Positions 46,132 through 54,131 are shown, numbered from the stretch's first letter. The stretch is 64,000 nucleotides of DNA from a bacterium (GCA_046331705.1 JAXLQJ010000020.1:1-64000); one strand, 5' to 3'. The notes: generated by a model from the sequence alone, not told the origin. Numbers and translations: made by a program.

Positions 46132-47574
46132 TCAGCGCGTCGCCGGCGCGACACGCATCGTGTGCGACGCGCTCCTGCTTGCAGCGGTCCAGCGCACGAG
46201 GTGGCCACCGGCGATCGCCTCGAGCGCGAAGCGGCCGTCGCTCACCGTCACGCTCAGGCCGCTCGGAAAGCGGCGCTCGGGGGCGAACACGATCGTGTCG
46301 CCGCGCGCGCCGGCGCGATCGCGGAAGGCAAGCTCGAACGCGCCGCTCGCGGGGTCGTAGCCGAAGCGCTCCGGCTCACCCGCGATGCGCCACGGATACG
46401 GGCGCACCAGCACGTCCATGAACGGTCGCTCGGCACCGCCCGCCTCGACGATGCTGCCGCCCTCGCCGTTCCAGTCGTAGCCCGTCGGCTCGTAGTTCCA
46501 GATGGTGCCGCTCAGCATCAGCCGATCGTGGATCGCGACCTCGTCGGCGAGCGCTTCTTGCTTGTTGGGCACGGACTCGTAGACGCCCCATTCACCGATG
46601 AAGGGCGCCATGCCGAGGGATTCGGCGAAGTCCAGGATCTCGCGATAGCGCCGTTCGCGCGCGTCGCGCGTGCCCAGATAGACGCCCAAGGTGGCCTGGA
46701 TCGGGTCGTAGCAATGGGCGGCGAGCACGGCGCCCGGCGCGCCGAGCGGCTCGAGGAAGCTCGGAAAGCCCACGCCGGCGGCGCCCGGCGGCTCCAGGAA
46801 CACCAGCGCCGCTGGGTCCACGGCGCGGATCGCCGCCGACACGTCGCGATAGAAGGGCGAGAGTCGATCCCGCTCGTAGTCCGGCTGACCCAGGATCTCC
46901 GAATAGCCGATCGGCTCGTTCATGAGGTCGTAGCCGAGGACTCCCGGCTCGTCGCGCAGCCGCTTGGCCACCTCGACCACCGCGTCGCGGTAGTGCGCGC
47001 GCAGCTCGTCGCTCCGCCAGAAATGATCGACGGCCGCGGCCACGGCGGGCGTGAACTGGAACGCGAACCAGCCTGGTCCGCACGCCTCGGGCGGAAAGGG
47101 CTCCGCGTCCGCGGGCAACGCCCACGCAGGAGCGCCGTCGCCGCAGAAGGCGCGCGACCACACGTCCTGGTGCATGTCGACGAGAACCTCGATGCCGCGC
47201 GCGTGCGCGGCTCGAACCAGCGCCACGTAGCGATCGAGGTAGACGGTGTCGTACACGCCCGGGGACGGCTCGATCGCTTCCCAGCTCGTGAGCAGTCGGA
47301 CGACGTTGAAGCCCCACGCCGCCAGCGGATCGAAGCCCGCCGGATCTTCGAGCGCCACGAAGGGCGGCCCCTTCGCCCGCCCGCTCACGTTGGCGCCGTG
47401 CAGGATCACGACCCCGCCGTCCGGGTCGACCAACCACCGCCCTTCGACCCTCAGGCGATTCGTGCCACCGGCGGAGCCTGCGCCCGCGTCCGTTCCGTCG
47501 CCACAGCCCGACGCGAAGGACGCGAGGACGAGCGCCCACGTCGTCAAGCTCACACGCACGGCACGAGCTCGCAC
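46132..47574 (-). CDS. GH5 endoglycoceramidase-like lipoprotein
   Basis: ILHGANV, GFNVVRL, WEAIEP, VDMHQDVWSR, GDGAPAW, DLMNEP, IGEWG and RPYP; lipobox FASGC. Confidence 0.88.
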   Translation of the reverse strand: MRARAVRVSLTTWALVLASFASGCGDGTDAGAGSAGGTNRLRVEGRWLVDPDGGVVILHGANVSGRAKGPPFVALEDPAGFDPLAAWGFNVVRLLTSWEAIEPSPGVYDTVYLDRYVALVRAAHARGIEVLVDMHQDVWSRAFCGDGAPAWALPADAEPFPPEACGPGWFAFQFTPAVAAAVDHFWRSDELRAHYRDAVVEVAKRLRDEPGVLGYDLMNEPIGYSEILGQPDYERDRLSPFYRDVSAAIRAVDPAALVFLEPPGAAGVGFPSFLEPLGAPGAVLAAHCYDPIQATLGVYLGTRDARERRYREILDFAESLGMAPFIGEWGVYESVPNKQEALADEVAIHDRLMLSGTIWNYEPTGYDWNGEGGSIVEAGGAERPFMDVLVRPYPWRIAGEPERFGYDPASGAFELAFRDRAGARGDTIVFAPERRFPSGLSVTVSDGRFALEAIAGGHLVRWTAASRSASHTMRVAPATR

Positions 47575-47583
47575 GCCGAGCGC

Positions 47584-48690
47584 TCAGTAGAGAAACGGGA
47601 TCACACGGAAGCGGGCGACTTTGCAGTACTGGTCCCAGAGCTCGCCGTATTTCGCTTTGCACTTGCCGTCGTCGCGGGCGGCGCGCTGGGTGAGCAGCAG
47701 CAACAGCGAGAACGGCAACACGTAGGGCCAGATCGACTGGAAGCGGGTGCAGAGCGCGAACGAGAGATAGACCATCAGCTCGCCGGTGTAGTTCACGTGG
47801 CGGCCGATCCCCCACCAGCCCGAGACCAAGAGCCGCCCCCCGAGCGTGCGGGCCGGCTTGCCCCAGATGATCGCGTTGCGATCCCGCTTGTAACGGTCCT
47901 TCTGCCAATTGGCGCTGCGGAAGATCCAGTGCCCGAGGACGTGGAATGCACCGAGCGCGAGCGACGCCTGCCAGTGGAACGGAAGCGTGTCGTCGATCAG
48001 CCACCAGCCGCAGATCGAGTACCAGAACGGCACGTACACCGTGTCGCCCCACACCAACATGAAGCCGAACTTCTCCGCGATGATGTCCCACGTGGAGAGC
48101 ATGAACTCTTCCTTCAGGTAGTGGGTGTAGAGGTACGCCCACCAGAAGCACACGAAGAGTCCCATCTGCGGCGTCAGGCTCGAGTAGAGCTCGAATTGCC
48201 GGAACGCGAACGCGGCGTTGATCACGCCCAGGCCGATGAGCGAGGGGTGGTAGAAGAACATCTTGAGATCGACGCCCAGGAAGGTGGGATTCAGCTGATT
48301 CCCGAACCAGATGTCGTGAACCAGCTTGGGCAGCCGGGTATGACGCTCGATCGTCTGCTCCTCCAGGTAGCCCTTGAGCAGGATCAACGCGAGCGCCACC
48401 AGCGAGAACACGTTCGCCACCACCAAGAGGGGCTTGAAGTAGCTGAGCACCGGTGTGAGCGAGAATCCGAACACCAGCTTCAGCACCACGATCACGGCCT
48501 GTGTCGCGAAGAAGAGCGTCATGCCGGAGAGCTTGTAGGTCCGTCGTTCGCCGTTCGCGAGCGGCTGGCCCTGCGCCTGGATTCCGGGCAGGAAGATCGA
48601 GCCCAGGAAGAGGAACGCGAAGAATCCGATGAACATCCCGGCCGCGAACTTGAGCGTGTCCCAGGTGATCGGCAGCAACAGTCCTTCCAT
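47584..48690 (-). CDS. ERG4/ERG24-family sterol reductase, most like plant-type delta14-sterol reductase
   Basis: FGNQLNP, DLKMFF, WDIIAEKFGFMLVWGD, FRSANWQK, LLVSGWWGIGRHVNYTGE and RDDGKCKAKYG. Confidence 0.92.
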   Translation of the reverse strand: MEGLLLPITWDTLKFAAGMFIGFFAFLFLGSIFLPGIQAQGQPLANGERRTYKLSGMTLFFATQAVIVVLKLVFGFSLTPVLSYFKPLLVVANVFSLVALALILLKGYLEEQTIERHTRLPKLVHDIWFGNQLNPTFLGVDLKMFFYHPSLIGLGVINAAFAFRQFELYSSLTPQMGLFVCFWWAYLYTHYLKEEFMLSTWDIIAEKFGFMLVWGDTVYVPFWYSICGWWLIDDTLPFHWQASLALGAFHVLGHWIFRSANWQKDRYKRDRNAIIWGKPARTLGGRLLVSGWWGIGRHVNYTGELMVYLSFALCTRFQSIWPYVLPFSLLLLLTQRAARDDGKCKAKYGELWDQYCKVARFRVIPFLY

Positions 48691-48837
48691 CCGCGAACCC
48701 CTTCGGAAAATCGGCGTGGGAGAGCGAGCCCGCGAGAGGTACCATGCGCGCCGCGAATGGCACAACCAGCGTCGCCGACTCGCACCGACCACGCGAGCGC
48801 GGCTCCCCGAGACCGGCATCCCGAGGCTCCCGAGACC

Positions 48838-49695
48838 ATGACGAGCTCGATCGCACCGTCGCTCTTCGCGACGCACCCGGGTAAGCGCGCAGCCGAGCGT
48901 TTCTTCCTCGCCTACACGCCCGTGTGGGGCCTGCTCGCCAGCGCGGTGATGCTGACGGGCGTCGCGAATCGCTGGGGCGACGTGGAGCTGATGCTGTTCG
49001 CGCTGCTCTTGTGCACGGGCACGGCGCTCGGCCCGTTCGTGTTCGCCCCCGCGGAGGAGAAAGCAAAACCGCTGACCCAGCGCTACGCGTTCAAGATCCT
49101 GGTCTGGCTCGCGATCTATTCGTTCCTCGCCAACACCTTCGGCACCTCGTTCTTCTACGAGGCGTTGCACGCGCACTACGGCTTCGACACGCGCTTCAAC
49201 CTGAACGGCGTGCCGGTCTTCCTGACCTTCATGACGATCACGTACTTCGCGACCTACTCGGTGCTGGTGTGCATCGGCTGGCGCATCGCTCGCGACCGGA
49301 TCATGCCGCGCTCACGCCTTCGCGGCTGGGCCTTCGCCGCGGCGGTCCCGGTGGTGATCGCCGGCGTGGAAAGCGCGCTCAACGCGAACCCGTGGATGAA
49401 GACCCTCTACTGCTTCGACCACCCGGCGTTCGCGCTCACCTTCGGCACGGTCGCGTACGGCACCTGGCTCGCGCTCGCGATGCCGTTCTGGGTGACGCTC
49501 GACGAGCGCCCCGGCAGCGACTTGCCGATGGCGAAGGTGATCGGCGGCAGCCTGCTCGCCACCGCGTTGCTGCTCGCGGACGCCGAGCTGCTGAAGCGGG
49601 TGGTGGCGCCGCATCTCACCGAGGTGGCGTGGGGCCACGTGGGTCTCAGGGACTACGGCACGAGCTGCCTCGGTCCTCGGCCGGCCTCGCCCTGA
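48838..49695 (+). CDS. Cycloeucalenol cycloisomerase (cyclopropylsterol isomerase, CPI1-like)
   Basis: PGKRAAERFFLAYTPVW, RYAFK..VWL..YSFLANTFGT.FFY..L.A.Y.F, LNGVP, IAGVES and LDE. Collinear with plant CPI1 as I recall it; 285 aa, multi-TM. Confidence 0.82.
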   Translation: MTSSIAPSLFATHPGKRAAERFFLAYTPVWGLLASAVMLTGVANRWGDVELMLFALLLCTGTALGPFVFAPAEEKAKPLTQRYAFKILVWLAIYSFLANTFGTSFFYEALHAHYGFDTRFNLNGVPVFLTFMTITYFATYSVLVCIGWRIARDRIMPRSRLRGWAFAAAVPVVIAGVESALNANPWMKTLYCFDHPAFALTFGTVAYGTWLALAMPFWVTLDERPGSDLPMAKVIGGSLLATALLLADAELLKRVVAPHLTEVAWGHVGLRDYGTSCLGPRPASP

Positions 49696-51051: not shown

Positions 51052-51099
51052 GATGACTCACCGCGTCATCTTGACAGCGACGCGCCCCGTCAAGAGAAT
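51052..51099 (+). promoter_or_regulatory. Sigma70-type promoter of mvaS overlapped by two inverted repeats
   Basis: TTGACA (51071-51076), 17-bp spacer, GAGAAT (51094-51099). Inverted repeats GATGAC-N7-GTCATC and TCTTGAC-N13-GTCAAGA. Confidence 0.6.
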
Positions 51100-51131: not shown

Positions 51132-52526
51132 ATGGCCCACGATTCGAGCAAGCTCACCGGAGCGAGCCCGATCCCGTCGATCGGGATCAGCGGCCTCTCC
51201 GTCTACCTCCCCGAGCGCGCCGTGAAGCTCAAGCCGCTCGCCGAGGAGCGCAACGCGCGCCGCAGCGACGGCGACTCGCGCGACTTCGTGAAATCGCTTC
51301 GCTACACCGGCCAGGAGGAGATGCGAATCCCCGAAGTGTGGGAGGACACGGTGACGATGATCGCCGAGTCGGTGCGCGACGTCGTGCGCAGCACCGGCGT
51401 CAATCCCACCCACGTGAGCCAGTTCGTGTGCGGCACCGAGACCGCGATGGATCACGCCAAGCCGCTGTCGAGCTTCGCGCAGGGGCTGCTCGAGCAAGAC
51501 GGCATCCGCATCGGCCCCGACACCAGCATCTACGAGGTCAAGCACGCCTGCGCCGGCGGCACCTACGGGCTGCTCGGCGCGGTGAGCCAGATCGCGATCG
51601 ATTCGATTCGCGGGCTCGCCGCACCCGCGATCGTCACCATGGGCGACACCTCGCGCTACGACCTCGTCTCCACCGCCGAGTTCACGCAAGGCGCGGGCGC
51701 CGTCAGCATGCTCGTCGAGACCAACCCCAAGCTGATCCGGCTGGATCTGGGCGTGGTCGGCTACAACAGCCAGAGCGTCGACGATTTCTTCCGCAACATC
51801 GGCTCGAGCGTGGCCAAGGCGCGCGGCAAGTTCTCGGTGCAGTGCTACAAGGAGGCACTCGTCGGCGCCTATCAGAGCTTCAAGGACAAGGCGCTGCGCA
51901 GCGGCCTTCACCACGTCGCGCCCGGCAAGCATTTCCTCGACAGCTTCGACTACGTGCTGCTGCACGCGCCGTTTCGGCAGATGCCGGTGGAGGCGCTGAC
52001 GGACCTGCTCGCGAAGGCGCGCGGGATCTCCCAGGAAGCGGCCGAGGTCGAGCTCGCGCGTCTCAGGCTGCCCGAGTCGCTCGGCGGCACGGCGCTCGCC
52101 GGCAATCTCTACACCTGCTCGCTCTACCTCTGTCTCGCGAACCTGCTCGAGAGCGAGCTCAAGCGGATCGGTGACGAGCTCGAAGGCAAGCGCATCCTCT
52201 TCGCCTCCTATGGCAGCGGCAACACGATGGTGGTGTTCTCGGGAACGATCGTGCCGGGCGCCAGCGACGCGATCCGGAAGATCGGGCTCGCCGACAAGCT
52301 CAAGCACCGCACCTGGCTCGGCACGCGCGACTACGAGGACCGCGTGGCTTTCGACAAGTTCGACCGCGAGCGCTACGCGGCGCGGCTCACCAGCGAGTGG
52401 GCCTCGATCCCCGCGGATCGCTACTACCTCCGCGAGATCCGCGTCGACGGCTATCGGGAGTACGGGGTCAAGGGGAAAGAGACCGCGCCCAGCGCCATCC
52501 TCGGCGCCGGCGCCACGGCGGCCTGA
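51132..52526 (+). CDS. mvaS: Hydroxymethylglutaryl-CoA synthase
   Basis: GTET (Glu), KHACAGGT (Cys), EFTQGAGAV, DFFR, LHAPF (His), GNLYTCSL and SYGSG; AAGGA RBS. Confidence 0.88.
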   Translation: MAHDSSKLTGASPIPSIGISGLSVYLPERAVKLKPLAEERNARRSDGDSRDFVKSLRYTGQEEMRIPEVWEDTVTMIAESVRDVVRSTGVNPTHVSQFVCGTETAMDHAKPLSSFAQGLLEQDGIRIGPDTSIYEVKHACAGGTYGLLGAVSQIAIDSIRGLAAPAIVTMGDTSRYDLVSTAEFTQGAGAVSMLVETNPKLIRLDLGVVGYNSQSVDDFFRNIGSSVAKARGKFSVQCYKEALVGAYQSFKDKALRSGLHHVAPGKHFLDSFDYVLLHAPFRQMPVEALTDLLAKARGISQEAAEVELARLRLPESLGGTALAGNLYTCSLYLCLANLLESELKRIGDELEGKRILFASYGSGNTMVVFSGTIVPGASDAIRKIGLADKLKHRTWLGTRDYEDRVAFDKFDRERYAARLTSEWASIPADRYYLREIRVDGYREYGVKGKETAPSAILGAGATAA

Positions 52527-52592: not shown

Positions 52593-54131
52593 CTACGCCG
52601 CGGCGGCGAGGGGCTCGCGGATCGGCGCGGTGAGCCCGGCGGCGAGCATCTTCACCGGCAGGTCCGGCGCCTTGGTCAGCGCGCGGCGACGGAACGGGCT
52701 CGCGAGCAGCGTGAGGATGTCGCGTTTGCGCATGAAGCGTCCGAAGTTCCGCAGCAAGCGCGCGGTGCGAATCGGGCGGCGCGTGAGCCGGTGCGCGAAC
52801 AAGAGGCCGTACCCCTTCATCCGCAGCCGGTTGAGCTCTTCGCTGGGCAGGATGGTCGGATCGATGTCCGAGCACTTGAACCACTTCTGCCAATCGCGCT
52901 TGTCGTCGATCACGCCTTTCTCGACGTATTCCTGCCAGAGCGGCGTGCCGCGATAGGCACACAGACGGTTGAAGCCGAAGGTGTCGAGCTCGAGGCGCGC
53001 CGCGAAGCGGAAGCTCTCGAGCACGTCTTCCGCGGTCTCGTTGGGGGCGCCGATCAGGAAGAAGCCGTGGGCGCTGGCGATGCCCGCTTCCTTCGCCTTG
53101 CGCACCGCCAGCTCGATCTGCTCGAGCTTCTGGCCCTTCTTGAGCCGATCCAGCACCTTCTGGGTGCCGGCCTCGACGCCGAATGCGAGCATCGAGCATT
53201 TGGCCTTGGCCATGATCGGAAACTCGTTGATCGCCATCGAGTCGACGCGGCCTTCACAGCCCCACCGGAGATCGAGCTTGCGATCGATCATCCCCTGACA
53301 GATCGCCTCGATGCGTTTGCGCTTGAGCAGGAAGTGATCGTCGGTCAGGTAGACCGAGCGATAGCCGCGATCGTTGAGCATCTGCATCTCGCCGAGCACG
53401 TGCTCCGGCGAGCGCGAGCGCCACTTGCCGTCGGCGAGCGCCGGTATGTCGCAGTAAATGCAGGGATACGGACAACCACGCGACGTCTGCATGGTGCAGA
53501 ACCGGTCCAGCGAAAGCACCGCGGGCACGTCGAGGGGCATCGACTCGATGTACTCGATCGGCAAGCTCTCGCGGTCGGGATACGGGTACTTGTCGAGATC
53601 GCGGAGGATCGGCCCGTCCTCGTTGGTGACGATCTCGTCGCCGCGCCGCCACGAGAGGCTCGGCACGTCGCCTGGGCGGTGCATGTTGGCCAGGTATGCG
53701 GGCAGCAGCTCCTCGCCCTCGCCCTCGCCGACGGCGTCGGCGTGGGGGCAGTCCTCGAGGATCTGCACCGGATTGATCGACGCGAACGGTCCGCCGAGGA
53801 TGATCGGGGTCTTGGGAGACGCGGCCTTCAGCGTGGCCGCCATCGCCTTGGTCGCCGGATAGGAAGTCGTCGAGAGGAAGGACAGCCCGACCAGATCGGG
53901 CTGCTGATCGCGCACCGCTTGGGCGATGTGTTCGGGCTTCATCTCGGGGTGGCAGGTGTCGAAGAGCCGCACCTGGTGCCCGCGCTCGCGCAGCACCGGC
54001 GCCAGCGTCTGGATTCCCAGCGGCGGGAACGCCATCACCGGGAGACGGTTCTCGAACTGTGGACGGCGCAACCGCTCCGGCAACAGTCGGTAGTAATTCT
54101 CGTCGCGGACGTAAACGAGGAAGACGTTCAC
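52593..54131 (-). CDS. Cobalamin-binding (class B) radical SAM enzyme
   Basis: PPLGI, ILGGPFAS, GEGEE, TSRGCPYPCIYC, DDHF, GVEAG, FFLIG.PNET and GTPLW motifs. Confidence 0.92.
   Translation of the reverse strand: MNVFLVYVRDENYYRLLPERLRRPQFENRLPVMAFPPLGIQTLAPVLRERGHQVRLFDTCHPEMKPEHIAQAVRDQQPDLVGLSFLSTTSYPATKAMAATLKAASPKTPIILGGPFASINPVQILEDCPHADAVGEGEGEELLPAYLANMHRPGDVPSLSWRRGDEIVTNEDGPILRDLDKYPYPDRESLPIEYIESMPLDVPAVLSLDRFCTMQTSRGCPYPCIYCDIPALADGKWRSRSPEHVLGEMQMLNDRGYRSVYLTDDHFLLKRKRIEAICQGMIDRKLDLRWGCEGRVDSMAINEFPIMAKAKCSMLAFGVEAGTQKVLDRLKKGQKLEQIELAVRKAKEAGIASAHGFFLIGAPNETAEDVLESFRFAARLELDTFGFNRLCAYRGTPLWQEYVEKGVIDDKRDWQKWFKCSDIDPTILPSEELNRLRMKGYGLLFAHRLTRRPIRTARLLRNFGRFMRKRDILTLLASPFRRRALTKAPDLPVKMLAAGLTAPIREPLAAAA

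Follow-up and report, generated by a model that had tools for sequence, protein, structure and literature searches.

Sterol-core gene homologues in a wastewater bacterial lineage without detected squalene cyclisation genes: a candidate route for remodelling acquired sterols

What use would a bacterium have for enzymes from the middle of the sterol pathway if the genes that open this pathway are not found in its genome? The question is raised by two divergently transcribed genes in a 64,000-nucleotide stretch of DNA from an uncultured wastewater bacterium (GCA_046331705.1 JAXLQJ010000020.1:1-64000; "the window" hereafter means this whole stretch), which encode an ERG4/ERG24-family sterol reductase, probably a delta14-sterol reductase (P0001; nt. 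47584-48690, minus strand, 368 amino acids (aa)), and a polytopic membrane protein of the CPI1 family, resembling cycloeucalenol cycloisomerase (P0002, hereafter CPI; nt. 48838-49695, plus strand, 285 aa). In plants, CPI1 (EC 5.5.1.9) converts cycloeucalenol into a delta8 sterol by opening its 9beta,19-cyclopropane ring, and reductases of the ERG24 family are NADPH-dependent enzymes that saturate the delta14 bond left by CYP51. The window's own genome (G000) and its relatives keep CPI, CYP51, a reductase, and, with one exception, ERG2, and are devoid of recognisable genes for squalene synthesis, epoxidation, and cyclisation. We lean, by no great degree, towards the view that the lineage converts cyclopropyl and 14-methyl sterols acquired from its surroundings.

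The gene pair and the missing entry to the pathway

The lineage considered here is a phylum in GTDB, represented by six species genomes in two genera, all of them metagenome-assembled genomes (MAGs) of 60-990 contigs and 74-100% completeness; G000 comprises 8.17 Mb in 118 contigs and is 95.67% complete, and the genome of the sister genus (G001) was reported as 100% complete. The start codons of the two genes (ATG at 48690, minus strand, and ATG at 48838, plus strand) enclose a spacer of 147 bp (nt. 48691-48837). The P0001 frame, translated from the minus strand of nt. 47584-48690, is free of stops over its 368 aa and contains the blocks WDIIAEKFGFMLVWGD and WGKPARTLGGRLLVSGWWG. In a sequence of ~70% G+C, the third codon positions of both frames show the elevated G+C of real genes; both proteins are covered by homologues from residue 1, and conservation in an alignment with two sister species starts at the CPI ATG. 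The preliminary description of this DNA, made from the sequence alone, had proposed exactly this layout of two divergent open reading frames (ORFs), and translation and start codons bear it out to the base. Pairwise ratios of nonsynonymous to synonymous substitution within the lineage (NG86 method) were 0.07-0.24 for the reductase, 0.08-0.41 for CPI, and 0.15-0.27 for the adjoining glycoside hydrolase family 5 (GH5) gene, and purifying selection acts on each of them.

The reductase matches the PF01222 (ERG4/ERG24) profile over profile positions 66-432 (E 4.6e-79; 266.7 bits at a cut-off of 27). It has only two relatives in the PDB, both deposited as delta(14)-sterol reductases, namely the bacterial enzyme MaSR1 (4quv; E 2.2e-66, residues 7-368) and 9l5r (E 2.2e-32), so the family assignment made earlier stands. 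The C-terminal blocks LLxSGWWGxxRHxNYxGE and RDDxxCxxKYGxxW, which we take to be NADPH-binding, align with 4quv, the segments LLVSGWWGIGRHVNYTGEL and RDDGKCKAKYGELW of P0001 being the counterparts of the sterol-reductase blocks there. About 43 of the best 120 homologues carry the JGI name "delta14-sterol reductase", with no other enzyme name among them. The ESM-Atlas neighbours are two Streptophyta-rich clusters (0.97), 7-dehydrocholesterol reductase (0.95), and lamin-B receptor (0.88). The preliminary description had likened the reductase to the short plant FACKEL enzyme more than to animal or fungal ones; the Streptophyta scores and the short length of P0001 are a hint in this direction.

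In a tree of 31 sequences, in which the long branches joining clades A and C were flagged, both the P0001 type (clade A) and the delta24(24(1)) type (clade C) received 100/100 support, and the MaSR1-like sequences (clade B) grouped more weakly (80/72). The preliminary description had named a grouping with C7 or C24 reductases as contrary to its C14 assignment; P0001 lies outside clade C, and the tree contains no DHCR7 reference. It had overlooked that the clade of P0001 is distinct from the characterised bacterial MaSR1. Clade C includes a Coxiella-named protein 70% identical to a paralogue in G001 (locus L023, G001:C297:4116-5420). All three clades occur within the lineage: clade A in G000, G001, G004, and G005, with G001 carrying the delta24(24(1))-type copy in addition, and clade B in G002 (L024, G002:C1:230513-231655) and G003 (L025), which have a MaSR1-like copy only, 33-34% identical to P0001. 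A MaSR1-like reductase also lies downstream of CPI in three clusters of other bacteria (L078, L087, and L104). As clades A and B share the slot after CPI and are mutually exclusive in the six genomes, we argue that they do the same job; the regiochemistry expected of clade A would be delta14.

No NCBIfam family matches either P0001 or P0002, and Pfam likewise yields none for P0002. We found 215 homologues at E<=0.001; among the 120 listed, 21 bear the automated JGI name "cycloeucalenol cycloisomerase" (41-47% identity, 89-98% coverage), and the remainder are hypothetical or unnamed, with no other functional name. The ESM-Atlas cluster of the same name (94% Eukaryota, mostly Streptophyta) scored 0.92, with 215 of 256 features common with P0002, and a cluster look-up of 10 CPI homologues returned no informative names. 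These relatives support the CPI1 membership put forward in the preliminary description, and ring-opening catalysis is predicted from this homology.

The AlphaFold2 model of P0002, built with 30 homologues (predicted local distance difference test score 91.1, predicted template modelling score 0.89), is all-helical, with nine helices of at least four residues and two short strands, and lacks a Pfam domain, as would be anticipated for a small polytopic membrane protein without a cofactor domain. Foldseek matched the model to no PDB entry at E<=0.001. In a wide search with VIA-align, residues 83-227 matched best to a mycobacterial Insig homologue (4xu4; Z 5.8 over 133 residues, root-mean-square deviation 3.6), and the Insig in 6m49 scored Z 4.4; by the guidance that comes with VIA-align, both values are too low to be trusted for helical bundles, and we make no claim as to the fold.

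The front of the pathway is what the lineage lacks. Profiles for squalene/oxidosqualene cyclase (PF13243), squalene/phytoene synthase (PF00494; control positive in 8 of 14 genomes), and squalene epoxidase (PF08491) found nothing in any of the six genomes, and the cyclase profile PF13249 found nothing in G000, the one genome searched with it. A search for sterol methyltransferase (PF08498) was also negative in all six, and is uninformative, its control being positive in no genome. The downstream genes are kept: CPI, CYP51, and a PF01222 reductase in all six genomes and ERG2 in five, with a single-copy HMG-CoA (hydroxymethylglutaryl-CoA) reductase in all six, so that a mevalonate pathway is present though no squalene synthase was found. 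The CYP51 of G000 (C23:79675-80961) is closest to the CYP51 structures 6mi0 (E 2.5e-119) and 6mcw (E 4.8e-119). Among 28 other CPI-bearing genomes, 24 have a cyclase, and three of the four without one have a PF00494 gene.

The proposal of the preliminary description that the organism makes sterols via cycloartenol is thus not upheld, and of the genes that it suggested looking for, CYP51 is present throughout, whereas squalene epoxidase and oxidosqualene cyclase were found in none of the six genomes. The missing cycloartenol synthase lowers the case for a biosynthetic CPI of a cycloartenol pathway, not that for CPI1 family membership. An artefactual loss of synthase, epoxidase, and cyclase from all six bins is unlikely, bearing in mind that related genomes, all of them MAGs, are not independent. 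Because the whole lineage is without these three enzymes, the substrates of those that remain must come from outside. What is new here is this context, a cyclase-less lineage keeping CPI, CYP51, reductase, and ERG2, and not the CPI-reductase pair as such, since bacterial CPI1 and ERG24 homologues have already been published for myxobacteria and Dadabacteria, as the accessible text of PMC8237579 reports.

Linkage, neighbouring genes, and habitat

A scan of one genome per prokaryotic species returned 62 loci with a P0002 relative, five in the window's lineage and 57 elsewhere, several of them on short contigs. The 57 derive mostly from Myxococcota (Polyangiaceae, Sandaracinaceae, Nannocystaceae, and Minicystis rosea), together with a Dadabacteria MAG and a Binatia MAG. 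CYP51 lies directly upstream of the CPI homologue in 12 of them: in seven as part of a same-strand CYP51-CPI-reductase cluster (L067, L070, L074, L075, L078, L087, and L104) and in five more as CYP51-CPI alone. The L070 cluster adds ERG2, a FAD_binding_4 protein, and two 3beta-hydroxysteroid dehydrogenase (3beta-HSD) genes. In G001, the genes for reductase, CYP51, and CPI are gathered within 5 kb, with CYP51 between the other two and on the same strand as CPI, probably the older arrangement; in the window's genus, CYP51 is on another contig, beside a TetR gene. We regard the reductase and CPI as functionally linked because CYP51-CPI-reductase clusters recur in other bacteria and CYP51 stands between them in the sister genus, and the strongest functional evidence for either gene is the recurrent position of CPI between CYP51 and reductase.

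One of these clusters deserves separate mention. The MAG that carries L104 (G032, recorded as Alphaproteobacteria bacterium HK-STAS-MYXO-36), unrelated to the window's lineage, has the CYP51-CPI-reductase cluster and a squalene/phytoene synthase family gene, and gave no cyclase match. A delta24(24(1))-type reductase (P0261) is found on a contig of 357,703 bases, the same as for L104 and probably the same contig.

Within the lineage, the order of GH5 and reductase, facing CPI and followed by HMG-CoA synthase, B12-binding radical SAM, PNPOx-like, and GH1 genes, is kept in G000, G004, and G005, and the flanks (GH5 on one side, CPI-HMG-CoA synthase-B12 radical SAM-PNPOx-GH1 on the other) are also kept in G002. 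The spacer itself contains a block at nt. ~48703-48766 (no strand assigned), in its reductase-proximal half, which is nearly invariant in G000, G004, and G005 and is a candidate shared regulatory site; the CPI-proximal half is poorly conserved. An imperfect palindrome around GGTACC lies within the block (nt. 48731-48750), and a 39-nt piece of it (nt. 48713-48751) survives ahead of CPI in G002, a genome whose locus has no reductase gene. The only sigma-70-like promoter site of the region (nt. 51071-51099) is upstream of the HMG-CoA synthase gene, and the one terminator-like match falls inside CPI on the opposite strand, such matches being below shuffle expectation. In one metatranscriptome (X20; word share 0.11), short contigs map to GH5 (nt. 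46471-46661), the reductase (nt. 48175-48325), and CPI (nt. 48927-49224), a weak hint that all three genes are transcribed; carry-over of DNA is possible, and contigs reveal neither strand nor level.

The GH5 gene (nt. 46132-47574, minus strand, 480 aa) begins 9 bp after the stop codon of the reductase on the same strand, an operon-like arrangement of a reductase and a glycolipid hydrolase that the preliminary description had passed over, and this adjacency is kept in G004, G005, and G001. Its product has the domains PF00150 (E 6.2e-25) and PF18564, the GH5 C-terminal domain (E 3.1e-15). The best PDB relatives are the endoglycoceramidases 5j14, 5ccu, and 2osw (E 6.6e-40 to 5.7e-39), with 5j14 and 2osw covering residues 26-460, and the fungal sterylglucosidases 8exd and 7lpo match in part. 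Domains and closest relatives alike point to the endoglycoceramidase/sterylglucosidase branch, the substrate being a prediction. The N-terminus (...LVLASFASGC) resembles a lipobox, and the protein is predicted to be a lipoprotein. An exported glycolipid hydrolase beside a sterol reductase would fit the processing of external lipids.

ERG2 of G000 (C2:304730-305284; locus L126, G000:C2:298932-311887) is surrounded by two acyl-CoA dehydrogenases, an acyl-CoA ligase, a TetR regulator, a Rieske oxygenase, an ABC ATPase, and an MMPL/Patched-SSD pump. The best PDB relatives of the Rieske oxygenase are KshA (4qdc, E 4.5e-45), and its adjacency to ERG2 holds in all five genomes with ERG2. G000 has eight KshA_C genes and 12 FA_hydroxylase (ERG3/ERG25/SMO-like) genes, and the five sister genomes have similar numbers; where sterol synthesis is missing, this is a large expansion of oxygenases. 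At a further locus (L127, G000:C42:14471-29898), two KshA-like genes are accompanied by a thiolase-like gene, an aldehyde dehydrogenase, a MarR-like regulator, and two FadL/TodX channels, which are outer-membrane channels for hydrophobic compounds. Some of the KshA-like Rieske proteins could be C-4 demethylases of the SdmA type rather than 9alpha-hydroxylases.

As for habitat, a 3.9-kb stretch was held at no less than half of its sampled words by 19 sequencing runs listed under 12 studies, labelled as activated sludge, sludge, wastewater, or anaerobic digester, with one labelled only "metagenome"; one run has the stretch near-identically in a single contig and may be where it came from.

Other genes of the window can be dealt with briefly. 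The HMG-CoA synthase gene (nt. 51132-52526, plus strand) lies one to three genes downstream of CPI, a position conserved in the genus. Following it, the gene of a B12-binding radical SAM protein (nt. 52593-54131, minus strand, 512 aa) always has a PNPOx-like gene and a GH1 beta-glucosidase gene beside it, a few kb from CPI, and its product is 93-97% identical among sister species, above its neighbours. Among 10 proteins scanned from the first 24 kb of the window, none was sterol-related.

A candidate route and its alternatives

The reading that best accommodates these observations is that the lineage remodels exogenous sterols. A more specific version is offered tentatively, as a possibility that we would not call probable: CPI, CYP51, the C14 reductase, and the C8 isomerase ERG2, in that order a eukaryote-like biosynthetic segment, may have been turned by a free-living wastewater lineage to the uptake and conversion of cyclopropyl protosterols of the cycloartenol family, be they of plant, algal, amoebal, or bacterial type. 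Such a route would be fronted by a surface GH5 lipoprotein that deglycosylates steryl or ceramide glycosides, and would feed the many KshA-like and SMO-like oxygenases. Plants, algae, amoebae, or cycloartenol-making bacteria are plausible sources of sterols in sludge. In the preferred reading itself, GH5 would free sterol or lipid aglycones at the cell surface, and one of the many SMO-like or Rieske oxygenases would remove one C-4 methyl; CPI would then open the cyclopropane ring, CYP51 (G000:C23:79675-80961) take off the 14alpha-methyl, P0001 remove the delta14 bond, and ERG2 (G000:C2:304730-305284) shift delta8 to delta7. The products would most likely enter a steroid-oxidising or degrading network, the alternative being the cell's own membrane; of these two fates, degradation is favoured.

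Several points weigh against this reading. In two of the six species, G002 and G003, there is no reductase next to CPI, and we found no reductase remnant between GH5 and CPI in either. The only CYP51 match of G001 has one in-frame TAG (L053:8520-9938 = G001:C64), which divides it into two ORFs (175 and 284 aa) and could reflect a pseudogene, an assembly error, or read-through. A sigma-70 promoter scan found none in the spacer, and the KstR-type operator pattern TNNAACNNGTTNNA has no match in the window; co-regulation of reductase and CPI, proposed in the preliminary description, is inferred, the spacer having a conserved block and no identified promoter or operator. Steroid ring degradation has not been demonstrated as a complete pathway in the lineage. 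Clade A is further removed from delta14 reductases of characterised activity than is the MaSR1-like paralogue of G002 and G003, P0001 scoring 227.9 bits against 4quv and 115.9 bits against 9l5r, versus 326.2 and 182.7 bits for the G002 copy; the regiochemistry of clade A is not secured, and the tree contains no DHCR7 reference. Literature searches, with supplementary tables outside their reach, found no paper characterising any bacterial CPI. Free cyclopropyl or 14-methyl sterols make up a minor part of most sterol pools, which leaves their supply in the environment uncertain. Finally, with MAGs as the only genomes of the lineage, it is, strictly speaking, conceivable that binning systematically lost an island with cyclase and epoxidase.

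That last point leads to the possibility of de novo cycloartenol-based synthesis, the squalene synthase, epoxidase, and cyclase genes having dropped out of all bins. The mevalonate pathway is there, with HMG-CoA synthase in the window and HMG-CoA reductase in every genome, the MAGs are fragmented (60-990 contigs), and the presence of a cyclase in 24 of 28 other CPI-bearing bacteria implies that CPI normally travels with the full pathway. We nevertheless consider such synthesis very improbable: three independent families are each missing from all six genomes, including those 95.67% and 100% complete, the single-copy comparators were recovered (HMG-CoA reductase, CPI, and CYP51 six times out of six, ERG2 five), and the same search method detected cyclases in other genomes and controls. 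Only slightly less remote, and still quite unlikely in our estimation, is a different chemistry altogether, with non-sterol or non-canonical substrates such as other cyclopropyl or polycyclic triterpenoids, a delta8(14) or delta7 bond, or aglycones released by GH5. Neither the CPI clade nor reductase clade A has a characterised bacterial member, clade A stands apart from the MaSR1-like clade, the CPI model has no solved relative (Foldseek, E<=0.001), and the nearest solved relatives of GH5 are ceramide-glycoside hydrolases. Set against this, CPI is repeatedly found between CYP51 and reductase, in clusters that also hold ERG2 and 3beta-HSD, the slot after CPI is taken by a clade-A reductase in some bacteria and by a MaSR1-like one in others, the two types excluding one another in the six genomes, and P0001 retains the C-terminal blocks aligned with MaSR1.

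A stronger competitor, which we still hold to be rather unlikely, is salvage for the cell's own use, in which scavenged intermediates would become delta8/delta7 sterols for its own membranes or signals and would not be degraded, in a manner resembling sterol-auxotrophic eukaryotes and intracellular bacteria that keep a few late sterol enzymes. CPI, CYP51, C14 reductase, and ERG2 do form a contiguous segment of core maturation, and an MMPL/Patched-SSD pump stands beside ERG2. Moreover, the delta24(24(1))-type reductase of G001 is 70% identical to that of Coxiella burnetii, which makes no sterols and modifies those of its host. Phytophthora, in the available text of PMC8984297, keeps DHCR7 although auxotrophic. 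Yet the acyl-CoA dehydrogenases, acyl-CoA ligase, and KshA-like oxygenase around ERG2 look catabolic, the eight KshA_C and 12 FA_hydroxylase paralogues likewise speak against own-use salvage, and sterols in the cells are not evidenced. We retain conversion of acquired sterols, with degradation as the favoured outcome, as the preferred reading.

If the more specific version outlined above is right, no cyclopropylsterol isomerase before this one would have been given a part in salvage or catabolism, and the lineage would be a bacterial sink that rewrites environmental pools of sterol intermediates. Whether eukaryotic sterol synthesis has a myxobacterial origin is debated with reference to bacterial homologues of CPI1 and ERG24; a lineage in which purifying selection maintains the middle of the pathway alone, every gene for making the sterol skeleton being missing, indicates that sterol genes can persist as tools of sterol remodelling. 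Were this confirmed, late-pathway genes in metagenomes should not be taken as sterol production, nor sterol intermediates in sludge or sediments read as purely eukaryotic, and the bacterial CPI, with a fold that has no solved relative, would be tractable for biochemical and structural work.

Comparison with known systems

The nearest systems by gene content are the CYP51-CPI1-ERG24 sets of Myxococcota and Dadabacteria. In the accessible text of Hoshino & Gaucher (2021, PMC8237579), CPI1, CYP51, and ERG24 homologues are described in myxobacteria and Dadabacteria, mostly syntenic in the former, CPI1 is called specific to cycloartenol modification, and the genomes were picked for at least a protosterol pathway. 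The corresponding text of a 2024 preprint (10.1101/2024.11.01.621555) describes cultured, cycloartenol-making Myxococcaceae without downstream core-modifying genes. The Myxococcota and Dadabacteria sets share with the window's lineage the same families, the linkage to CYP51, and the mevalonate pathway, and in the clusters of Polyangiaceae, Sandaracinaceae, and Nannocystaceae MAGs, the relatives are 36-46% identical to P0002 and 51-57% identical to P0001. They differ in having a cyclase in 24 of 28 sampled CPI-bearing genomes, where the lineage is without cyclase, squalene synthase, and epoxidase in six of six, and in arrangement, as the reductase gene of the window has been turned round to face CPI and adjoins a gene for a GH5 lipoprotein, with CYP51 on another contig.

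Plant CPI1 (Arabidopsis; Lovato 2000 and Men 2008, as cited in the part of PMC8172173 available to us) and FACKEL belong to the same families by automated labels and by the ESM-Atlas Streptophyta clusters (0.92 for CPI, 0.97 for the reductase), and the bacterial proteins resemble them in being short (285 and 368 aa) and in their nearly consecutive pathway roles. Unlike in plants, the host is a bacterium, no cycloartenol synthase was found, and sterol methyltransferase (PF08498) was found in none of the six genomes by a search whose control was positive nowhere. MaSR1 of Methylotuvimicrobium alcaliphilum (4quv) is the best solved relative of P0001 and has the C-terminal blocks in common with it; the two fall in separate clades, the MaSR1-like type of G002 and G003 being much nearer to MaSR1 (326.2 bits for the G002 copy).

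In logic, the closest published analogue is the CYP51/8,14-Bsr pair of sterol-degrading Mycobacteriales, which the available text of Lee, Giner & Welander (2026, PMC13277303) reads as modifying acquired lanosterol. There too, core enzymes occur in bacteria unable to cyclise squalene and are interpreted, in that text, as acting on exogenous protosterols. The mycobacterial reductase is, by the same text, a soluble NTF2-type protein and the substrate lanosterol, whereas the window's lineage has a membrane-bound ERG24 of the endoplasmic reticulum type, CPI, and ERG2, a set that implies cyclopropyl (cycloartenol-type) substrates. The Coxiella-type delta24(24(1))-sterol reductase (so named in NCBI and UniRef) offers a second parallel, as a member of the same ERG4/ERG24 family in bacteria without sterol synthesis and with a 70%-identical copy in G001; it differs in belonging to clade C, being 28% identical to P0001, and having the side chain of the sterol, not the nucleus, as its site of action. 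If confirmed, the route proposed here would widen the modification or consumption of exogenous sterols by bacteria beyond both the mycobacterial CYP51/8,14-Bsr pair and the Coxiella reductases.

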